From NCBI RefSeq assembly GCF_053078305.1, contig NZ_CP166879.1: DNA of 64,000 nucleotides. One strand, 5' to 3'. Positions within the stretch are counted from its first letter, which is position 1. Each line of letters opens with the position of its first letter. A program made the translations under genes and the position numbers. The notes beneath the pieces are model-generated. The model searched no databases, was not told where the DNA came from, and saw only the letters and a program-made list of their open reading frames with translations. Of the stretch, positions 6,364-40,315 are shown one piece after another.

Positions 6364-7704
6364 GTGACTACATTAACGCTTGTTTTAACAGCAGTAGGGT
6401 CTGTTTTACTGCTGCTGTTTTTAGTCATGAAGGCGCGTATGCACGCTTTCCTGGCTTTAATGGTGGTGTCCATGGGGGCTGGCCTTTTTTCCGGTATGCC
6501 GCTCGATAAAATCGCAGCGACGATGGAAAAAGGGATGGGAGGCACCCTCGGCTTCCTGGCGGTGGTTGTCGCCCTGGGAGCTATGTTTGGCAAGATCTTA
6601 CATGAAACCGGCGCAGTCGATCAGATTGCCGTCAAAATGCTTAAATCCTTCGGTCACAGCCGCGCGCATTATGCCATCGGCCTTGCGGGGCTGGTCTGTG
6701 CGCTACCGCTGTTCTTTGAAGTGGCGATTGTTCTGCTGATTAGCGTTGCTTTCTCAATGGCGCGCCACACCGGTACGAACCTGGTGAAGCTGGTAATCCC
6801 ATTATTCGCAGGCGTGGCGGCAGCGGCGGCGTTCCTGGTGCCAGGGCCAGCGCCAATGCTGCTGGCATCGCAGATGAACGCCGATTTTGGCTGGATGATC
6901 CTGATTGGCCTGTGTGCGGCAATTCCGGGAATGATTATTGCCGGGCCGCTGTGGGGTAACTTCATCAGCCGTTACGTTGAGCTGCATATTCCTGACGACA
7001 TCAGCGAGCCGCATCTCGGCGAAGGCAAAATGCCGTCCTTCGGATTCAGCCTGTCGCTGATCCTGCTGCCGCTGGTGCTGGTGGGGCTGAAAACCATTGC
7101 CGCGCGTTTTGTGCCGGAAGGCTCTACCGCTTACGAATGGTTCGAGTTTATTGGTCATCCGTTTACCGCGATTCTGGTTGCTTGTCTGGTAGCGATTTAT
7201 GGCCTGGCAATGCGTCAGGGCATGCCAAAAGACAAAGTGATGGAGATTTGCGGTCACGCGCTGCAACCGGCGGGGATCATTCTGCTGGTGATTGGTGCGG
7301 GCGGCGTGTTCAAACAGGTGCTGGTTGACTCTGGCGTAGGTCCGGCACTGGGCGAAGCGTTAACCGGCATGGGCCTGCCGATTGCTATCACCTGCTTCGT
7401 GCTGGCAGCTGCAGTGCGCATCATTCAGGGGTCTGCCACCGTTGCCTGTTTAACGGCGGTGGGGCTGGTGATGCCGGTCATTGAACAACTGAACTACTCC
7501 GGTGCGCAAATGGCGGCGCTGTCGATTTGTATCGCCGGTGGTTCGATTGTTGTCAGCCACGTTAACGACGCCGGTTTCTGGTTGTTCGGTAAATTTACCG
7601 GCGCGACCGAAGCCGAAACGCTGAAAACCTGGACCATGATGGAAACCATCCTCGGCACTGTTGGTGCCATCGTTGGGATGATTGCGTTCCAGCTGTTGAG
7701 TTAA
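6364..7704 (+). CDS. gntU: Low-affinity gluconate:H+ symporter (GntP family)
   Basis: 446-aa polytopic membrane protein; strongly similar to gntT (42454..43770) in the same window; 3 nt after gntK. Confidence 0.92.
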   Translation: MTTLTLVLTAVGSVLLLLFLVMKARMHAFLALMVVSMGAGLFSGMPLDKIAATMEKGMGGTLGFLAVVVALGAMFGKILHETGAVDQIAVKMLKSFGHSRAHYAIGLAGLVCALPLFFEVAIVLLISVAFSMARHTGTNLVKLVIPLFAGVAAAAAFLVPGPAPMLLASQMNADFGWMILIGLCAAIPGMIIAGPLWGNFISRYVELHIPDDISEPHLGEGKMPSFGFSLSLILLPLVLVGLKTIAARFVPEGSTAYEWFEFIGHPFTAILVACLVAIYGLAMRQGMPKDKVMEICGHALQPAGIILLVIGAGGVFKQVLVDSGVGPALGEALTGMGLPIAITCFVLAAAVRIIQGSATVACLTAVGLVMPVIEQLNYSGAQMAALSICIAGGSIVVSHVNDAGFWLFGKFTGATEAETLKTWTMMETILGTVGAIVGMIAFQLLS

Positions 7705-7717
7705 TTACTGCGACAAA

Positions 7718-7759
7718 TTACTGCGAGCTTGCTCGCAGTAATTCATTTCTCTTTTCTCC
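7718..7759 (+). terminator. Rho-independent terminator-like hairpin after gntU
   Basis: Arms ttactgcgagc / gctcgcagtaa around a tt centre, followed by the U-rich ttcatttctcttttctcc. Confidence 0.55.
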
Positions 7760-7843
7760 TCTCTTCATCTTTTTGATCTCTCTCGCAAATTTACCTGCAA
7801 ATAATCCGTTCTAATCACTGCCTAAAGATCGCAGGAGATAAAG

Positions 7844-9940
7844 ATGGAAAAGCACGCAGCTGAATTGCTTTTACAGCGGATGTTAGGAAATACCACCGCT
7901 ACTTTCAGGGAAGGGCAATGGGAAGCCATAGACGCGGTGGTGAACCAACGGCGAAAACTGCTGGTTGTCCAACGCACTGGCTGGGGGAAAAGTGCTGTGT
8001 ACTTCATCGCCAGTAAAATCTTCCGCGATCGCGGCGCTGGCCCGACAATTATCATCTCTCCTTTGCTTGCCCAGATGCGTAACCAGGTTGCCGCCGCTGA
8101 ACGGTTAGGTATTACGGCTGAAACGTTGAATTCTACAAACAGGGAAGAATGGCAGCGCATTAGCGATAAGTTGCTGCAAGGTGCGGTCGATTGCTTGCTG
8201 GTTTCCCCGGAACGTTTGGCAAACCAGGACTTTATCGAAACGGTTTTATATCCTATAGCCGATCGTATTGGCTTGCTTGTGGTCGACGAGGCGCACTGCA
8301 TCTCTGATTGGGGCCACGATTTTCGCCCGGATTACCGACGTATATTAGATATTTTGCGCCAACTACCTGCGAATACCCCTGTTCTGGGTACAACCGCGAC
8401 AGCGAATAACCGTGTCGTTGAGGATATCCGTCAGCAATTGGGTGACATTGTGATTCAGCGTGGAACGCTGGCTCGCGAAAGTTTGGCGCTTGATGCCTTA
8501 GTCTTAGGTGAACAGTCATCCCGTCTGGCATGGTTAGCAACGGTTATCCCTCAGTTTTCCAAATCGGGAATTGTTTATACCCTGACTACTCGCGATGCCG
8601 AACTTGTCGCCGAGTGGTTAAGGAAAAATGGTATCAGTGCATTTGCTTACTACAGCGGCGTGACTTGTGAAGGCGCGGAAGATTCTAATACTGCCAGGGA
8701 ATATCTGGAGCAGGCGTTGCTGGCAAATAAAATTAAAGTGCTGGTTGCGACAACGGCGCTGGGAATGGGCTTTGACAAACCGGATTTGGGGTTTGTTATT
8801 CATTACCAGATGCCAGGTTCGATAGTTGGTTACTACCAACAGGTGGGGCGTGCCGGTCGCGGTATCGATTCTGCTGTTGGCATACTGCTTTGCGGCAGTG
8901 AAGACCGTGCTATTCATAAATTCTTCCGTGAAAGCGCCTTTCCTGCGGAGGCGCAAATTCATGAATTACTCAACGTACTTAGCGTGAATGACGGTCTTAC
9001 CTTACGAGGCATTGAACAACGGACGAATCTCCGTTATGGGCAAATAGAAAAAGCACTGAAATTATTGGTAGCTGAAAATCCATCGCCTGTGGTGTATACC
9101 GAGAAATTATGGCGCAGAACAATTGTCAGTTTTTCTCCTGACCATGAACGAATTAACCATTTGATGAATCAGAGAAAAAGTGAGCTGGCAGACGTTGAAA
9201 GCTATATCACGACCAAGGAGTGCAAAATGCAATTTCTGCGCCGCGCACTCGATGAGCCAGGTGCCGAACATTGTGGTAAATGTAGCAGTTGTCTTCAGCA
9301 TCCGTTGTTGTCGCCCGACATTGATAGCGGCTTACTCCATGCGGCAAACTTATTTATTAAACACGCTGACCTGTCATTAAATCTCAATAAACAGGTGGCA
9401 GCTGGGGCTTTTACGCAATACGGATTTAAAGGGAACTTGCCTGCGATTTTACAAGGATCTACGGGGCGAATCCTTTCTCGTTGGGGAGATTCCGGGTGGG
9501 GAAAGCAGGTAGCACAGGAGAAAAAAACGGGGCGATTCAGTGATGAACTGGTGGAGGCATGTGCGGAAATGGTTCGCCAACGCTGGAATCCGCATCCTGA
9601 ACCAACCTGGGTATGCTGCGTTCCTTCATTACAGCACCTCGACCTGGTTCCTGATTTTGCCCGGCGACTGGCGGCGAAACTTGGCTTACCTTTTATTGAT
9701 GCCATTGAAAAAGTCGTGGACAATCCACCGCAGAAAATGCAGCAAAACCGTTTCCACCAGTGTCAAAATCTCGACGGGGCGTTTGTGATTACCCCTCCTT
9801 TGATGCCTGGTCCGGCGTTGCTGGTTGACGATATCGTGGATTCTGCATGGACGCTGACAGTTCTGACAGCACTGTTACGCCAGGCAGGTTGCCCGACGGT
9901 TTATCCTCTTGCCCTTGCTTCTACCTCGGTAAAAAATTGA
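7844..9940 (+). CDS. RecQ-family superfamily-2 DNA helicase with Zn-binding module, fused to a C-terminal ComF/GntX-like phosphoribosyltransferase-fold domain (apparently degenerate)
   Basis: 698 aa. Walker A QRTGWGKS; RecQ-type motif II VVDEAHCISDWGHDFRPDY; later helicase motifs TATA and QQVGRAGRG; four-Cys cluster CKMQ...HCGKCSSC. The last ~150 aa parallel the GntX C-terminus (NLDGAFVI...ALLVDDIVDSAWTLTVLTALLRQAGCPTV vs GntX NLKNAFRL...MVIVDDVVTTGSTVAEIAQLLLRNGAATV). Good SD (gcaggag) 8 nt upstream. I do not recall this gene in K-12. Confidence 0.8.
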   Translation: MEKHAAELLLQRMLGNTTATFREGQWEAIDAVVNQRRKLLVVQRTGWGKSAVYFIASKIFRDRGAGPTIIISPLLAQMRNQVAAAERLGITAETLNSTNREEWQRISDKLLQGAVDCLLVSPERLANQDFIETVLYPIADRIGLLVVDEAHCISDWGHDFRPDYRRILDILRQLPANTPVLGTTATANNRVVEDIRQQLGDIVIQRGTLARESLALDALVLGEQSSRLAWLATVIPQFSKSGIVYTLTTRDAELVAEWLRKNGISAFAYYSGVTCEGAEDSNTAREYLEQALLANKIKVLVATTALGMGFDKPDLGFVIHYQMPGSIVGYYQQVGRAGRGIDSAVGILLCGSEDRAIHKFFRESAFPAEAQIHELLNVLSVNDGLTLRGIEQRTNLRYGQIEKALKLLVAENPSPVVYTEKLWRRTIVSFSPDHERINHLMNQRKSELADVESYITTKECKMQFLRRALDEPGAEHCGKCSSCLQHPLLSPDIDSGLLHAANLFIKHADLSLNLNKQVAAGAFTQYGFKGNLPAILQGSTGRILSRWGDSGWGKQVAQEKKTGRFSDELVEACAEMVRQRWNPHPEPTWVCCVPSLQHLDLVPDFARRLAAKLGLPFIDAIEKVVDNPPQKMQQNRFHQCQNLDGAFVITPPLMPGPALLVDDIVDSAWTLTVLTALLRQAGCPTVYPLALASTSVKN

Positions 9941-11142
9941 TGAATCTTTCAGCCAATGCACAAGCAACTCTCCTGCTAACCAGCGATTTTTCTCGCGCGG
10001 CGGCGAGTGAGTATAAACCTCTTAGTAATAGTGAATGGGGGAAGTTTGCATTATGGCTGAAGCACCAACGTATCAGTCCCGCCGAGCTTCTGGTGCCGCA
10101 ACCGCAAGAGAAACTTACAGGCTGGAGCGATCCGCGTATTTCTCAGGAGCGTATTCTTGGCTTGCTGGCGCGTGGTCATAGTCTGGCGTTGGCGGTAGAT
10201 AAGTGGCAACGCGCCGGTTTATGGATCTTAACCCGCGGAGATGCTGATTATCCCGTTCGCTTGAAAAACCGATTGCGAACGGATGCACCTCCCGTTTTAT
10301 TTGGCTGCGGGAATAAAGCATTACTGCAAGCGGAAGGTATGGCGATTGTTGGCTCGCGAGATGCTCCGACTGACGATTTGCGCTATACCCAACAACTGGC
10401 CGCGAAACTGGCCCAACAGGGGATTTGCGTTATCTCTGGTGGTGCGCGAGGTATTGATGAATGTGCAATGGCGTCGGTACTGGAGGCCGGGGGAACTGCC
10501 GTTGGCGTATTAGCTGATAGCTTGTTAAAAACGAGTACGTTAGTGAAATGGCGTGAAGGGCTTATAGCAGGCAACCTGGTGTTGATTTCGCCGTTTTACC
10601 CAGAGGTACGTTTCACCGTCGGCAATGCGATGGCGCGAAATAAATATATTTATTGCCTTGCTGAAAGCGCAATGGTTGTACGTGCGGGAATGACCGGTGG
10701 AACGATAACCGGGGCGATGGAGGCATTAAAACATCAGTGGCTGCCTGTGCAGGTTAAACCAAATCAGGATATGCAATCAGCCAATTCACGATTAGTAGAA
10801 AATGGGGCGTCATGGAGTGCTGAACAGGCTGAGAATGTGACGATCAGACTGCCAGACGTTCCTGGGCTGATGTATGACAGAGCACTCCGTAACGCTCAAC
10901 CAGAACTGTTTTCGCTGCATGAAGATGACGCAAATTACGCAGTAATGCCCGCGTATACGCCTGTCGATTTTTATCAACTCTTTGTGGCGGAACTGGCGAT
11001 CCTTGCAAAGGAATCGATAAGTATTGAAAGGCTGGCGTCTTGTACTGGTTTAACCATCGAACAAATTAGTGTGTGGCTGAACCGCGCAGAAGAAGAGGGA
11101 AGGGTTATCCGATTGGGCGAAGGTCATTATCAGTTCAGGTAA
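9940..11142 (+). CDS. DprA/Smf-like (SLOG-superfamily Rossmann) DNA-processing protein with N- and C-terminal extensions
   Basis: Start taken at the ATG overlapping the helicase stop by 1 nt (ttgATGaat), not the upstream in-frame ATG of the ORF track. DprA core motifs MAIVGSRDAPTD, ISGGARGIDECAMASVLEAGG, ISPFYPEVRF, ARNKYIYCLAESAMVV. About 90-aa C-terminal tail, possibly a winged helix. Confidence 0.8.
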   Translation: MNLSANAQATLLLTSDFSRAAASEYKPLSNSEWGKFALWLKHQRISPAELLVPQPQEKLTGWSDPRISQERILGLLARGHSLALAVDKWQRAGLWILTRGDADYPVRLKNRLRTDAPPVLFGCGNKALLQAEGMAIVGSRDAPTDDLRYTQQLAAKLAQQGICVISGGARGIDECAMASVLEAGGTAVGVLADSLLKTSTLVKWREGLIAGNLVLISPFYPEVRFTVGNAMARNKYIYCLAESAMVVRAGMTGGTITGAMEALKHQWLPVQVKPNQDMQSANSRLVENGASWSAEQAENVTIRLPDVPGLMYDRALRNAQPELFSLHEDDANYAVMPAYTPVDFYQLFVAELAILAKESISIERLASCTGLTIEQISVWLNRAEEEGRVIRLGEGHYQFR

Positions 11143-11145
11143 TAA

Positions 11146-11181
11146 AACAGGTGCCGCGTCTGGTTGTGTGCAGCACCTGTT
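11146..11181. terminator. Imperfect inverted repeat (acaggtgc...gcacctgt) between the convergent DprA-like gene and yhgN
   Basis: Complementary arms about 8 bp each, seen in the sequence; no strong U-tract. Confidence 0.35.
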
Positions 11182-11187
11182 TGAACC

Positions 11188-11781
11188 TTACCCCTTCATC
11201 CACATTCGAATGCCGTCGAGGAACATCTGGGTTGCCATCATCACCAGAATCAATCCCATCAGGCGTTCAAGTGCGTTCACCCCTTTCTCGCCCAGCAGAC
11301 GTAAAAATAGCGAAGACTGTAGCAGGATGACAAAGGTGCCGCCCCAGGCCAGCAGCAGAGCAATCACCAGATGTCCCATCTGATTCGGGTACTGATGAGA
11401 CAACAACATCAGCGTGGCGAGAATAGTTGGCCCGGCGACCAGCGGAATTGCCAGCGGCACGATAAATGGCTCTTCACCTGCCGGAAGCCCGCTGCTATTT
11501 CCTGAAGCGCTGGGGAAAATCATCTTAATGGCAATTAGAAACAGAATGATGCCGCCAGAAATGGAGACGGTTTCTGCTCGTAGGCTGAGAAATGCCAGAA
11601 TTTTCTCACCCGCAAACAGGAACACCAGCATCACCAGGAGAGCAATAAGCAACTCTCGCACCATGATTGCCCGCCGTCTTTTCGGTTCAGTATGTTTCAG
11701 TACGGACATGAAAATAGGTAGGTTTCCGAGCGGATCCATAATCAGGATCAATAAAACTGCTGCAGAAATGATTTCATTCAT
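11188..11781 (-). CDS. yhgN: MarC-family inner-membrane protein
   Basis: 197-aa hydrophobic ORF; synteny next to asd. Confidence 0.88.
   Translation of the reverse strand: MNEIISAAVLLILIMDPLGNLPIFMSVLKHTEPKRRRAIMVRELLIALLVMLVFLFAGEKILAFLSLRAETVSISGGIILFLIAIKMIFPSASGNSSGLPAGEEPFIVPLAIPLVAGPTILATLMLLSHQYPNQMGHLVIALLLAWGGTFVILLQSSLFLRLLGEKGVNALERLMGLILVMMATQMFLDGIRMWMKG

Positions 11782-37897: not shown

Positions 37898-40315
<2,418 letters not shown>

Follow-up and report, generated by a model that had tools for sequence, protein, structure and literature searches.

The window analysed here is a 64,000-nucleotide stretch of contig NZ_CP166879.1 (NCBI RefSeq assembly GCF_053078305.1), in which the gluconate transporter gene gntU (6364-7704, + strand, with its TAA stop codon at 7702-7704, as given by the ORF list and the RefSeq annotation of identical loci) is followed by a helicase gene and a DprA-like gene. 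This 'helicase/DprA insert' is the known RqlHI module, also called PsyrTA, a two-gene toxin-antitoxin and phage-defence system, and the genes lie in the order typical of it, with the toxin gene, which encodes a RecQ-like helicase, overlapping a downstream antitoxin gene for a DprA-like protein. Both are full-length matches to the corresponding PADLOC profiles: rqlH (psyrT; 7844-9940, + strand) matches PsyrT with 1056.6 bits over residues 3-697 and carries the Pfam DEAD and Helicase_C domains, and rqlI (psyrA; 9940-11142, + strand) matches PsyrA with 668.8 bits over residues 32-431 of the long ORF and carries the Pfam domain DNA_processg_A. The longest ORF for rqlI begins at 9847, and the true start is likely the ATG at 9940, which overlaps the TGA of rqlH (TGATG); rqlI orthologues begin at the same stop-codon overlap. 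A C-terminal PRTase domain has been reported for RqlH/PsyrT (Russell & Mulvey 2015, PMC4670107), and the two genes are the same operon as that studied in the ExPEC strain F11.

On the right, the segment ends at yhgN (11188-11781, - strand, from the ORF list), a MarC/NAAT family gene that flanks both alleles of the site. Between the convergent rqlI and yhgN genes, alignment places a right-border hairpin (AAACAGGTGCCGC ... GCAGCACCTGTTT; 11145-11182, no strand assigned). No transposase or integrase was found in the segment. Of its ORFs, rqlH and rqlI are the two long ones on the same strand, and a Pfam scan of these two gave helicase and DprA domains; the shorter ORFs listed in the span overlap them. 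No terminal inverted repeats join the segment's two ends, and a megablast search with the 3483-bp segment (7705-11187) returned no match in the plasmid and phage collections.

The left junction reads, 5' to 3', gag TAA-TTACTGCGA-CA-AATTACTGCGA-GCTTGC-TCGCAGTAATT. The 11-mer AATTACTGCGA occurs twice on the + strand, at 7703-7713 (copy 1, which shares two nucleotides with the gntU stop codon) and at 7716-7726 (copy 2), and a third copy lies inverted at 7733-7743 (- strand). The sequence bears out the first-pass annotation, in which copy 2 was the left arm of a hairpin after gntU: folding and covariation delimit a 5' arm (AATTACTGCGAGC, 7716-7728) and a 3' arm (GCTCGCAGTAATT, 7731-7743), both given here on the + strand, with the inverted 11-mer contained in the latter. 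The hairpin (7716-7743) starts 12 nt past the gntU TAA; its 13-nt arms are perfectly complementary, with 2 nt between them, and fold as a 12-bp stem, including five GC pairs, closed by a 4-nt loop. The folding energy is -16.6 kcal/mol for the hairpin alone and -22.2 kcal/mol (z = -4.4) in an 86-nt context. A pyrimidine- and T-rich tail (CATTTCTCTTTTCTCC..., 7744-7772, + strand) follows the stem and would be the U-tract of a putative terminator. The feature had been described as terminator-like, and a consensus scan agrees, flagging the hairpin with the tail CATTTCTCTT. Perfect hairpins with arms of at least 12 nt occur at two sites in the window, versus 0.03 expected. The direct repeat taken alone is not significant, since the whole window holds one case of exact 11-mers repeated at most 30 nt apart versus 0.33 expected, and 27% of dinucleotide shuffles hold at least one.

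From the end of the tail to the rqlH start codon extends the leader/promoter region of rqlHI (7773-7843, + strand), defined by cross-genus alignments. It opens with a TTGAT motif (7773-7777) that is invariant across genera, and further downstream contains a stretch (7789-7843) with 29% divergence between two E. coli alleles. A consensus scan of the + strand between the hairpin and rqlH found no match to the sigma-70 consensus.

In E. coli, the site downstream of gntU exists in two forms. Of 5424 complete genomes, 3774 have a 56-bp K-12-type spacer, which holds another hairpin, and the other 1650 have the hairpin described here together with rqlHI; there is no other allele at the site and no alternative cargo. 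Divergence between the two forms starts at the first base past the gntU stop and runs to the last base before the yhgN stop, and the hairpin sits exactly at the left edge of this allele-distinguishing DNA, which is the junction position that had been claimed for it. A sensitive blastn search of the 1650 genomes located the hairpin junction in a single place per genome, always adjoining gntU, which rules out a dispersed repeat of the REP/BIME or ERIC type. Beyond the stop codons, the empty allele of K-12/BL21 has nothing in common with the junction. When the K-12 spacer was compared with the ends of the insert for residual homology, the only common element was a pyrimidine run, CTCTTTTC, which was judged a low-complexity coincidence.

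The layout gntR-gntK-gntU-hairpin-rqlH-rqlI recurs in Citrobacter freundii, in Silvania and in four metagenomic enterobacterial lineages, with RqlH proteins 68-73% identical to that of E. coli. These closer enterobacterial homologues were found by protein search and contig look-ups; the RqlH scan of the genome collection had relatives of 46-65% identity among the matches listed. RqlH and GntU give congruent groupings. The arrangement of gntU with rqlHI is old and common to several enterobacterial genera, and it is therefore not a recent island in E. coli. The description 'inserted module' has to be qualified for a module so long established at its site.

Comparison across these lineages shows that pairing in the hairpin is maintained. 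Its core, CTGCGAG-N4-CTCGCAG, is invariant in seven of eight sequences, and the outer stem varies in a compensatory manner (AATTA/TAATT, TATTG/CAATA, CATAAG/CTTATG, TAGCG/CGCTA), so that six of the 13 pairs have changed on both sides. Overall, 95.2% of the cells pair, versus 21-58% with the partner shifted by one to three columns, and none of 500 shuffles reached the observed covariation score. Such compensatory changes reveal selection for pairing, as in a terminator. Three cells hold G-U combinations that are wobble pairs on the + strand only, a strand bias that is consistent with an RNA of gntU sense. Against Rfam 15, the best scores were 14-21 bits, compared with gathering thresholds of 35-96.

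The hairpin is also strictly linked to the module. The first-pass annotation had suggested looking for it in genomes without the helicase/DprA pair, and it was present in none of the 3774 empty-allele E. coli genomes; outside E. coli, it is likewise absent from the Salmonella, Enterobacter kobei, Klebsiella aerogenes and Cedecea loci. Among fetched loci, the core is present in all 12 exactly matching gntU-rqlH loci and in none of the 89 others, and rqlH came next in 23 of 23 gntU-linked hits of the metagenome scan. Among the loci examined, no gntU locus without all trace of rqlH carries the hairpin. K-12/BL21, Salmonella and Enterobacter kobei use another terminator at this place, a CCCGGTAG...CTACCGGG-type hairpin that is homologous in all of them and keeps a CGGT/ACCGG core across the three genera, with different downstream neighbours (yhgN, asd, plsB). 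These two observations, the confinement to loci with rqlH and the use of another terminator elsewhere, assign the hairpin to the module, and we are highly confident that it is a conserved, cassette-linked structure.

We propose that the hairpin at 7716-7743 is a selectively maintained RNA stem-loop, formed on the gntU sense strand, which marks the 5' boundary of the rqlHI (PsyrTA) cassette. In rqlHI genomes, it would replace gntU's own intrinsic terminator at the same position and most probably does the same job. Transcripts of gntKU would then end 12-40 nt past the gntU stop codon, termination would prevent read-through from the gluconate-induced operon into the toxin gene rqlH, and rqlHI would be transcribed from its own promoter, downstream of the hairpin. 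Both termination and insulation are inferred. The complete reading, in which a module-linked hairpin terminates gntKU and insulates rqlHI while the direct repeat is an E. coli-specific duplication and not a recombination site, is the one we favour, with moderate confidence.

Several features temper the assignment as a plain terminator. In E. coli, eight of the 12 nt after the stem are T, in an interrupted run (CAUUUCUCUUUU; CATTTCTCTTTT); the count is 7-8 in other lineages, but four in Silvania and lineage L094, which nonetheless keep the hairpin. An interrupted or poor U-tract suggests that the hairpin may have another or an additional role, and it may serve in mRNA 3'-end protection, as a processing site or in protein binding. 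Moreover, the core is invariant in sequence and not only in pairing, as would also be seen for a sequence-specific site, although the K-12-type terminator retains its CGGT/ACCGG core across three genera in the same way. With no sigma-70-like promoter found between the hairpin and rqlH, some expression of rqlHI by read-through from gntKU is possible.

A protein-binding operator would be such a site. Autoregulation through a palindrome ahead of the first gene is common in toxin-antitoxin operons, and the three 11-mers that lie within 41 bp in E. coli, two direct and one inverted, could be half-sites for RqlI autoregulating rqlHI, or for GntR or LexA; the invariance of the 7-bp core across genera would fit. 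We nevertheless consider an operator unlikely. Between the end of the palindrome and the rqlH ATG lie 100 nt. The palindrome abuts the gntU stop and is followed by a T-rich tail, its outer positions covary for pairing rather than for sequence, and other species lack the third (direct) copy found in E. coli. Furthermore, no palindrome is conserved upstream of psyrT in 79 distant loci: their median best arm is 6 nt, versus 5 nt after shuffling, and only three of the 79 have a perfect inverted repeat of at least 10 nt in the 220 nt upstream. As to the individual regulators, the LexA box has the spacing CTG-N10-CAG and the hairpin CTG-N12-CAG, and the palindrome does not resemble the consensus of the GntR operator.

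There is also a small chance that the hairpin is a dedicated cis-element of rqlHI rather than a generic terminator, acting either as a leaky attenuator or as a site of capture and exchange. As an attenuator, tuned by its structure, it could couple the toxin-antitoxin/defence operon to gluconate-induced gntKU transcription, and the extra copy of the arm over the gntU stop in E. coli could offer a translation-sensitive alternative pairing. As a capture site, it could be a single-stranded hairpin site that allowed the cassette to be taken up behind gntU and to pass between enterobacterial genera, with the right-border CTGCG...CGCAG hairpin as its counterpart. An alternative structure in which copy 1 pairs with the 3' arm is predicted at -11.8 to -14.0 kcal/mol, weaker than the -16.6 kcal/mol of the main hairpin, and the same tail follows both structures, so that no switch results. 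A functional alternative pairing was also rejected across lineages, as their spacers match their own arm no better than those of others, with the exceptions of E. coli and of a 7-mer in lineage L095.

The termination and insulation reading leaves the direct repeat to be accounted for. The first-pass annotation had considered it a possible junction scar or recombination site. On such a reading, the tandem 11-mer or the 11-6-11 palindrome would be a trace of rqlHI insertion, in the form of a target-site duplication or an att/dif-like site, or a site that still moves the cassette. The position of the feature exactly at the left allele boundary, its strict linkage to the cassette, an 11-6-11 geometry like that of Xer/dif-type sites and a right-border hairpin that also holds CTGCG...CGCAG in several genera all speak for this idea, which we regard as very unlikely all the same. 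The right border (11143-11187), where the first-pass annotation proposed to look for a matching repeat, holds none, and with one mismatch allowed the only other match in the 64-kb window is an unrelated one at 38410; nor is there a copy in the empty allele, which is unrelated in sequence. Both direct copies lie on one side of the cassette, unlike a target-site duplication. Six other lineages have the same cassette at the same site and lack the exact repeat, copy 1 varies, and the outer stem covaries rather than being conserved. The cassette consists of rqlH and rqlI only, has no integrase or transposase, was not found on plasmids or phages by the megablast search described above, and faces no alternative cargo in E. 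coli. Compared by eye, only 8 of 28 positions match the E. coli dif sequence in register. The CTGCG 5-mer common to left and right stems has a probability of ~0.1 by chance on a rough estimate of our own, and it does not occur in the right hairpin of E. coli. The second junction has no related core, the E. coli right hairpin being unrelated, and inspection of the arms by eye revealed no attC GTTRRRY box. We conclude that the repeat is very probably not a recombination site.

The exact 11-mer repeat is confined to E. coli; in other lineages, the longest match between spacer and arm is 3-7 nt. Within E. coli, it is present in both diverged alleles and in about 1647 of the 1650 genomes. Copy 1 can vary while the hairpin stays perfect: it reads AATTACCGCGA in L117 and L122, and strain HB6 has lost 13 bp. 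The single-copy form was considered as an ancestral state and rejected, as HB6 is its only representative among the 1650 genomes, sits amid O157-like two-copy genomes and has an rqlH annotated as frameshifted, a context that points to a recent deletion by slippage or to a fault in the assembly. The repeated unit corresponds exactly to the 5' arm of the hairpin, and by our own estimate the probability of an exact copy of a given 11-mer within about 20 positions is roughly 5e-6, which indicates a real local duplication. In lineage L095, 7 nt of that lineage's arm are repeated independently of E. coli, which suggests not coincidence but a mutational process that recurs, either slippage at the hairpin or template switching there. 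A repeat arising by chance beside an ordinary terminator, compatible as it is with the window-wide repeat counts, is accordingly most improbable in view of the exact match to the arm, the presence in both diverged alleles and nearly all genomes, and the independent case in L095. We infer that the repeat originated as a local duplication, or a templated copy, of the 5' arm into the 13-nt stop-to-stem spacer. It is secondary, specific to the E. coli lineage, slippage-prone, dispensable as an exact copy and without demonstrable function; its near-fixation (all but about three of 1650 genomes) would also fit weak selection.

The finding is an ordinary one and of low interest; its practical value lies mostly in annotation, and it opens no long-standing question. 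The hairpin shows where the RqlHI/PsyrTA cassette truly begins on the left, and the cassette seems to have brought its own terminator-like hairpin in place of the native terminator of gntU. The 140-bp leader comprises an insulator-like element, the conserved TTGAT motif and a hypervariable stretch, contents that are relevant to cloning or deleting rqlHI and to comparing its expression between strains. The searched passages of Sberro 2013, PMC4670107 and Millman 2022 make no mention of the flanking hairpins, the cross-genus linkage to gntU or the replacement of the gntU terminator, and a search for literature on a gntU terminator found nothing usable.

Two kinds of known systems invite comparison. 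Like att/dif sites and target-site duplications, the junction places a short direct repeat, together with an 11-6-11 palindrome, where a segment of variable presence begins; it differs from them in having its copies at one end only, with none at the other end or in the empty site, in the lack of a recombinase, in a sequence unlike dif and in the lack of conservation of the repeat across lineages that share the cassette. The other counterpart is a Rho-independent (intrinsic) terminator, the native K-12 terminator of gntU (CCCGGTAG-N8-CTACCGGG, then CTCTTTTC). Both hairpins start within ~12 nt of the gntU stop on the sense strand, and both combine a perfect, GC-containing stem, a short loop, a pyrimidine- or T-rich tail and a core conserved across genera. 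In contrast to the K-12 terminator, the rqlHI hairpin is unrelated in sequence and present only when rqlHI follows, its stem ends in A-U pairs, and its U-tract is interrupted, and weak in two lineages. Finally, in K-12 the convergent genes gntU and yhgN share a single hairpin; in the rqlHI allele, each end of the cassette has a hairpin of its own.

The 11-mer AATTACTGCGA occurs twice on the + strand at the end of gntU, at 7703-7713 and 7716-7726, as the first-pass annotation had read it, and once inverted at 7733-7743 (junction sequence: ...ttgagTTAATTACTGCGAcaAATTACTGCGAgcttgcTCGCAGTAATTcatttctcttttctcc...). The first copy shares two bases with the gntU stop codon, TAA at 7702-7704. The other two are contained in the 13-nt, perfectly complementary arms of a hairpin (7716-7728 and 7731-7743), confirming the second copy as the left arm of a terminator-like hairpin after gntU. 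This hairpin has a folding energy of -16.6 kcal/mol (12-bp stem, 4-nt loop), its 86-nt context folds at -22.2 kcal/mol (z = -4.4), and a consensus scan flagged it as terminator-like. Taken alone, the 11-mer repeat is unremarkable, since one close exact 11-mer repeat was observed window-wide versus 0.33 expected, and at least one appeared in 27% of shuffles; it is a genuine local duplication because the repeated unit is exactly the hairpin arm. A search of the 64-kb window for further AATTACTGCGA returned a single other near-match, unrelated. Perfect hairpins of such length are found at two sites versus 0.03 expected; the second, at 1707-1735 (12-nt arms, 5-nt loop), is the only other one in the window with arms of at least 12 nt.

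Two alleles of this site exist in E. coli. This left junction is found in 1650 of 5426 complete genomes, in single copy and always beside gntU, and the K-12-type gntU-yhgN junction in another 3774, which accounts for 5424 genomes, so that no third occupant was seen among the 5426. The window is E. coli DNA, and its junction is 100% identical to that of O157:H7 genomes. K-12 and BL21 have 56 bp between gntU and yhgN, and these hold a different hairpin (CCCGGTAG-ttgtgacg-CTACCGGG, then CTCTTTTC). The alleles diverge directly after the gntU TAA, which places the feature at the left edge of the inserted module, as first proposed, and reconverge at the yhgN stop codon; the entire intergenic space is thus alternative, 56 bp versus 3483 bp. 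Of the 1650 junction-bearing genomes, 1641 match the 5-kb region over 80% or more of its length, so about nine probably have an interrupted or partly deleted rqlHI, the helicase toxin (rqlH) and DprA-like antitoxin (rqlI) gene pair; PMC4670107 reports an rqlH disrupted by an IS in Shigella sonnei. Comparing the O157-like allele of the window with the B2-type allele of clone D i14 gives 29% divergence (55 nt, 16 mismatches, 1 gap) over 7789-7843, just 5' of the rqlH start, versus 0-4% over 7703-7788 and 5.6% in rqlH; 7789-7843 is a local hypervariable leader or promoter segment.

The nearest RqlH proteins outside E. coli (68-73% identity) belong to Citrobacter freundii, Silvania hatchlandensis and further enterobacterial contigs. 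All share the layout gntR-gntK-gntU, a gap of ~141 bp, rqlH and rqlI; yhgN and asd follow rqlI in most, and one locus, L095, has a different right-hand neighbour. RqlH and RqlI similarities group the lineages as GntU does (RqlH and GntU identities are 90% and 99% for L086 and L092, 82% and 97% for L088 and L094). Such agreement is more in keeping with long residence of the module at the gntU site than with its recent insertion into E. coli. The Mangrovibacter gene pair (66% identity) lies at another location, without the hairpin. DNA downstream of gntU is variable among Enterobacteriaceae (L097, L098, L100, L101, L090): in Klebsiella aerogenes and the Salmonella locus, asd comes after ~420-470 bp of non-coding sequence with no yhgN in between; plsB lies downstream of gntU in Enterobacter kobei; in Cedecea neteri, two small ORFs (144 and 64 aa) that carry no annotation separate gntU from yhgN; and L090 has rqlHI without a yhgN call.

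The hairpin sits at the same place in every gntU-rqlH lineage (left-junction alignments A1 and A2). Its core, CTGCGAG-N4-CTCGCAG, is identical in seven of eight sequences, the eighth (L094) having a GA-to-AG swap, and the outer five or six pairs covary: AATTA/TAATT in E. coli, TATTG/CAATA in Citrobacter and L092, CATAAG/CTTATG in Silvania, and TAGCG/CGCTA in L090. Over the 13 pairs counted, 95.2% of cells are paired and both sides have changed in six pairs. The observed covariation score was reached by none of 500 shuffles, and with the partner shifted by 1-3 columns pairing fell to 21-58%. The few G-U cells wobble solely on the + strand, in agreement with an RNA of gntU sense; a comparison with the known RNA families of Rfam 15 found none matching the hairpin. 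Two short motifs further downstream, in otherwise variable surroundings, are also invariant in all lineages (A1): TTGAT at 7773-7777, ~30 nt past the hairpin, and AAT (within TAAT/TAAAT), at about 7811-7815, ~30 nt 5' of the rqlH start. Lying 32 nt apart, they are too distant for a standard -35/-10 pair, and a consensus scan found no sigma-70 promoter between the hairpin and rqlH.

Each of the 12 exact-matching gntU-rqlH loci has the core, and 0 of the 89 other loci compared do. Scanning metagenome contigs for the end of gntU plus the core hairpin gave 32 hits, nine of them unrelated chance matches; the remaining 23 are gntU-linked, and rqlH follows in 23 of 23. The only case without an intact gene pair, L122 (OBUV01000015.1), retains the hairpin and the first 45 rqlH codons, 92-93% identical to E. 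coli rqlH, which run straight into the right-border hairpin and yhgN. This is a secondary natural deletion that joins the 8-bp CTGGTTGT in rqlH (7960-7967) to an identical 8-mer in the right-hairpin loop (11161-11168), apparently through microhomology; a search of complete E. coli genomes found none of this type. The outcome that the first-pass annotation had named as refuting its reading, this hairpin in genomes without the gene pair, was therefore not observed.

Loci of gntU without rqlHI bear other hairpins. Salmonella has a clear homologue of the K-12 hairpin (GCTCGGTGG...CTTACCGGGC), as does Enterobacter kobei (CCCGGTAGCGTTAACGCTGACCGGG), despite different downstream neighbours (asd and plsB, respectively); Klebsiella aerogenes and Cedecea neteri have yet other hairpins after gntU. 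Being tied to gntU whatever lies downstream, the K-12-type hairpin is gntU's own terminator; the CTGCGAG hairpin, which accompanies rqlHI and not gntU, is the left-end element of the rqlHI cassette and takes the terminator's place. An intrinsic terminator for gntKU transcripts is the best explanation, favoured by the position, the stem, the T-rich tail and structure-preserving evolution. The 12 nt after the stem contain 8 T in E. coli, 7-8 in most lineages and 4 in Silvania and L094. The hairpin would end gntKU transcripts and thereby shield the gene of a toxic helicase from a sugar operon that can be strongly induced. Three points temper this explanation: the weak U-tract of Silvania and L094, the lack of a sigma-70 consensus match between the hairpin and rqlH, and a core invariant in its very sequence, although the K-12-type terminator likewise keeps a CGGT/ACCGG core across genera.

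A rival reading makes the hairpin an operator bound by RqlI or some other regulator. Against this, the site is 100 nt from the start codon, its outer half covaries rather than keeping its sequence, and a counterpart is absent upstream of 79 distant psyrT genes.

Unlike the hairpin, the exact upstream 11-mer is found only in E. coli among the gntU-rqlH lineages compared. Elsewhere, the stop-codon spacer of a lineage matches its own arm over 3-4 nt at most, no better than it matches the arms of other lineages; L095 is the exception, with a 7-nt repeat, CTGTTGC. Copy 1 has a substitution (AATTACCGCGA) in L117 and L122, both with the E. coli-type allele, and HB6 (NZ_CP040305.1), the sole single-copy genome among the 1650, lacks one 13-bp unit; the hairpin stays intact in all three. 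In HB6 (locus L004, 4500-4530 and 4629-6753), rqlH also carries an annotated frameshift and internal stop; the slippage may be real and accompanied by loss of the toxin, or the assembly may be at fault. Slippage or template switching at the hairpin is the most likely origin of the direct repeat, which would then be a by-product of mutation; this fits both the HB6 deletion and the independent repeat in L095. Copy 1 could also pair with the 3' arm, at -11.8 to -14.0 kcal/mol versus -16.6 for the main hairpin; this weaker pairing runs into the same tail and so makes no switch.

Of the junction scar or recombination site first envisaged there is no sign: a partner repeat is absent from the right border (11143-11187) and the rest of the window, the empty site resembles neither repeat nor hairpin, neither of the segment's two long ORFs is a recombinase, the site has two alleles only, the repeat is missing from sister lineages, and the sequence is unlike dif. 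CTGCG...CGCAG does recur in the right-border hairpins of several genera, but two GC-rich stems would share a 5-mer by chance with a probability of ~0.1 (a rough estimate), and the E. coli right hairpin lacks it. The rqlI-yhgN hairpin is also kept across genera (right-border alignment A3: window 11145-11182, L086 about 7305-7335, L094 and L088); its core is CTGCG...CGCAG in Citrobacter, L092 and L094, whose right arm reads TTACTGCG, and TGCG...CGCA in Silvania. The likeness of the two cores may be a coincidence. The hairpin is a conserved, cassette-linked, terminator-like stem-loop, and the tandem repeat a local duplication confined to E. coli.

The 3.5-kb segment has a GC content of ~0.50, similar to its flanks, and searching plasmid and phage collections with it gave no match. 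Its first ORF (7844-9940) is a full-length PADLOC PsyrT (1056.6 bits) with Pfam DEAD and Helicase_C domains, and the second (9847/9940-11142) a full-length PsyrA (668.8 bits) with DNA_processg_A (DprA). The longest rqlI ORF (431 aa, also the RefSeq annotation) probably begins too early: residue 32 is the first that the PsyrA profile matches, the rqlH TGA shares bases with an ATG at 9940 (TGATG; region 9847-9942), and RqlI orthologues of other genera (391-401 aa) have an equivalent start overlapping the stop codon. The module is the rqlHI operon known from extraintestinal pathogenic E. coli (PMC4670107), in which, as described by Russell & Mulvey (2015, PMC4670107), the two genes are co-transcribed and the RecQ-like helicase toxin RqlH is restrained by the DprA-like RqlI; the system was subsequently catalogued as the PsyrTA defence system. 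The module itself is thus already known, and what is new is small: the boundary of the cassette, the replacement of the gntU terminator, and a module position common to several genera.
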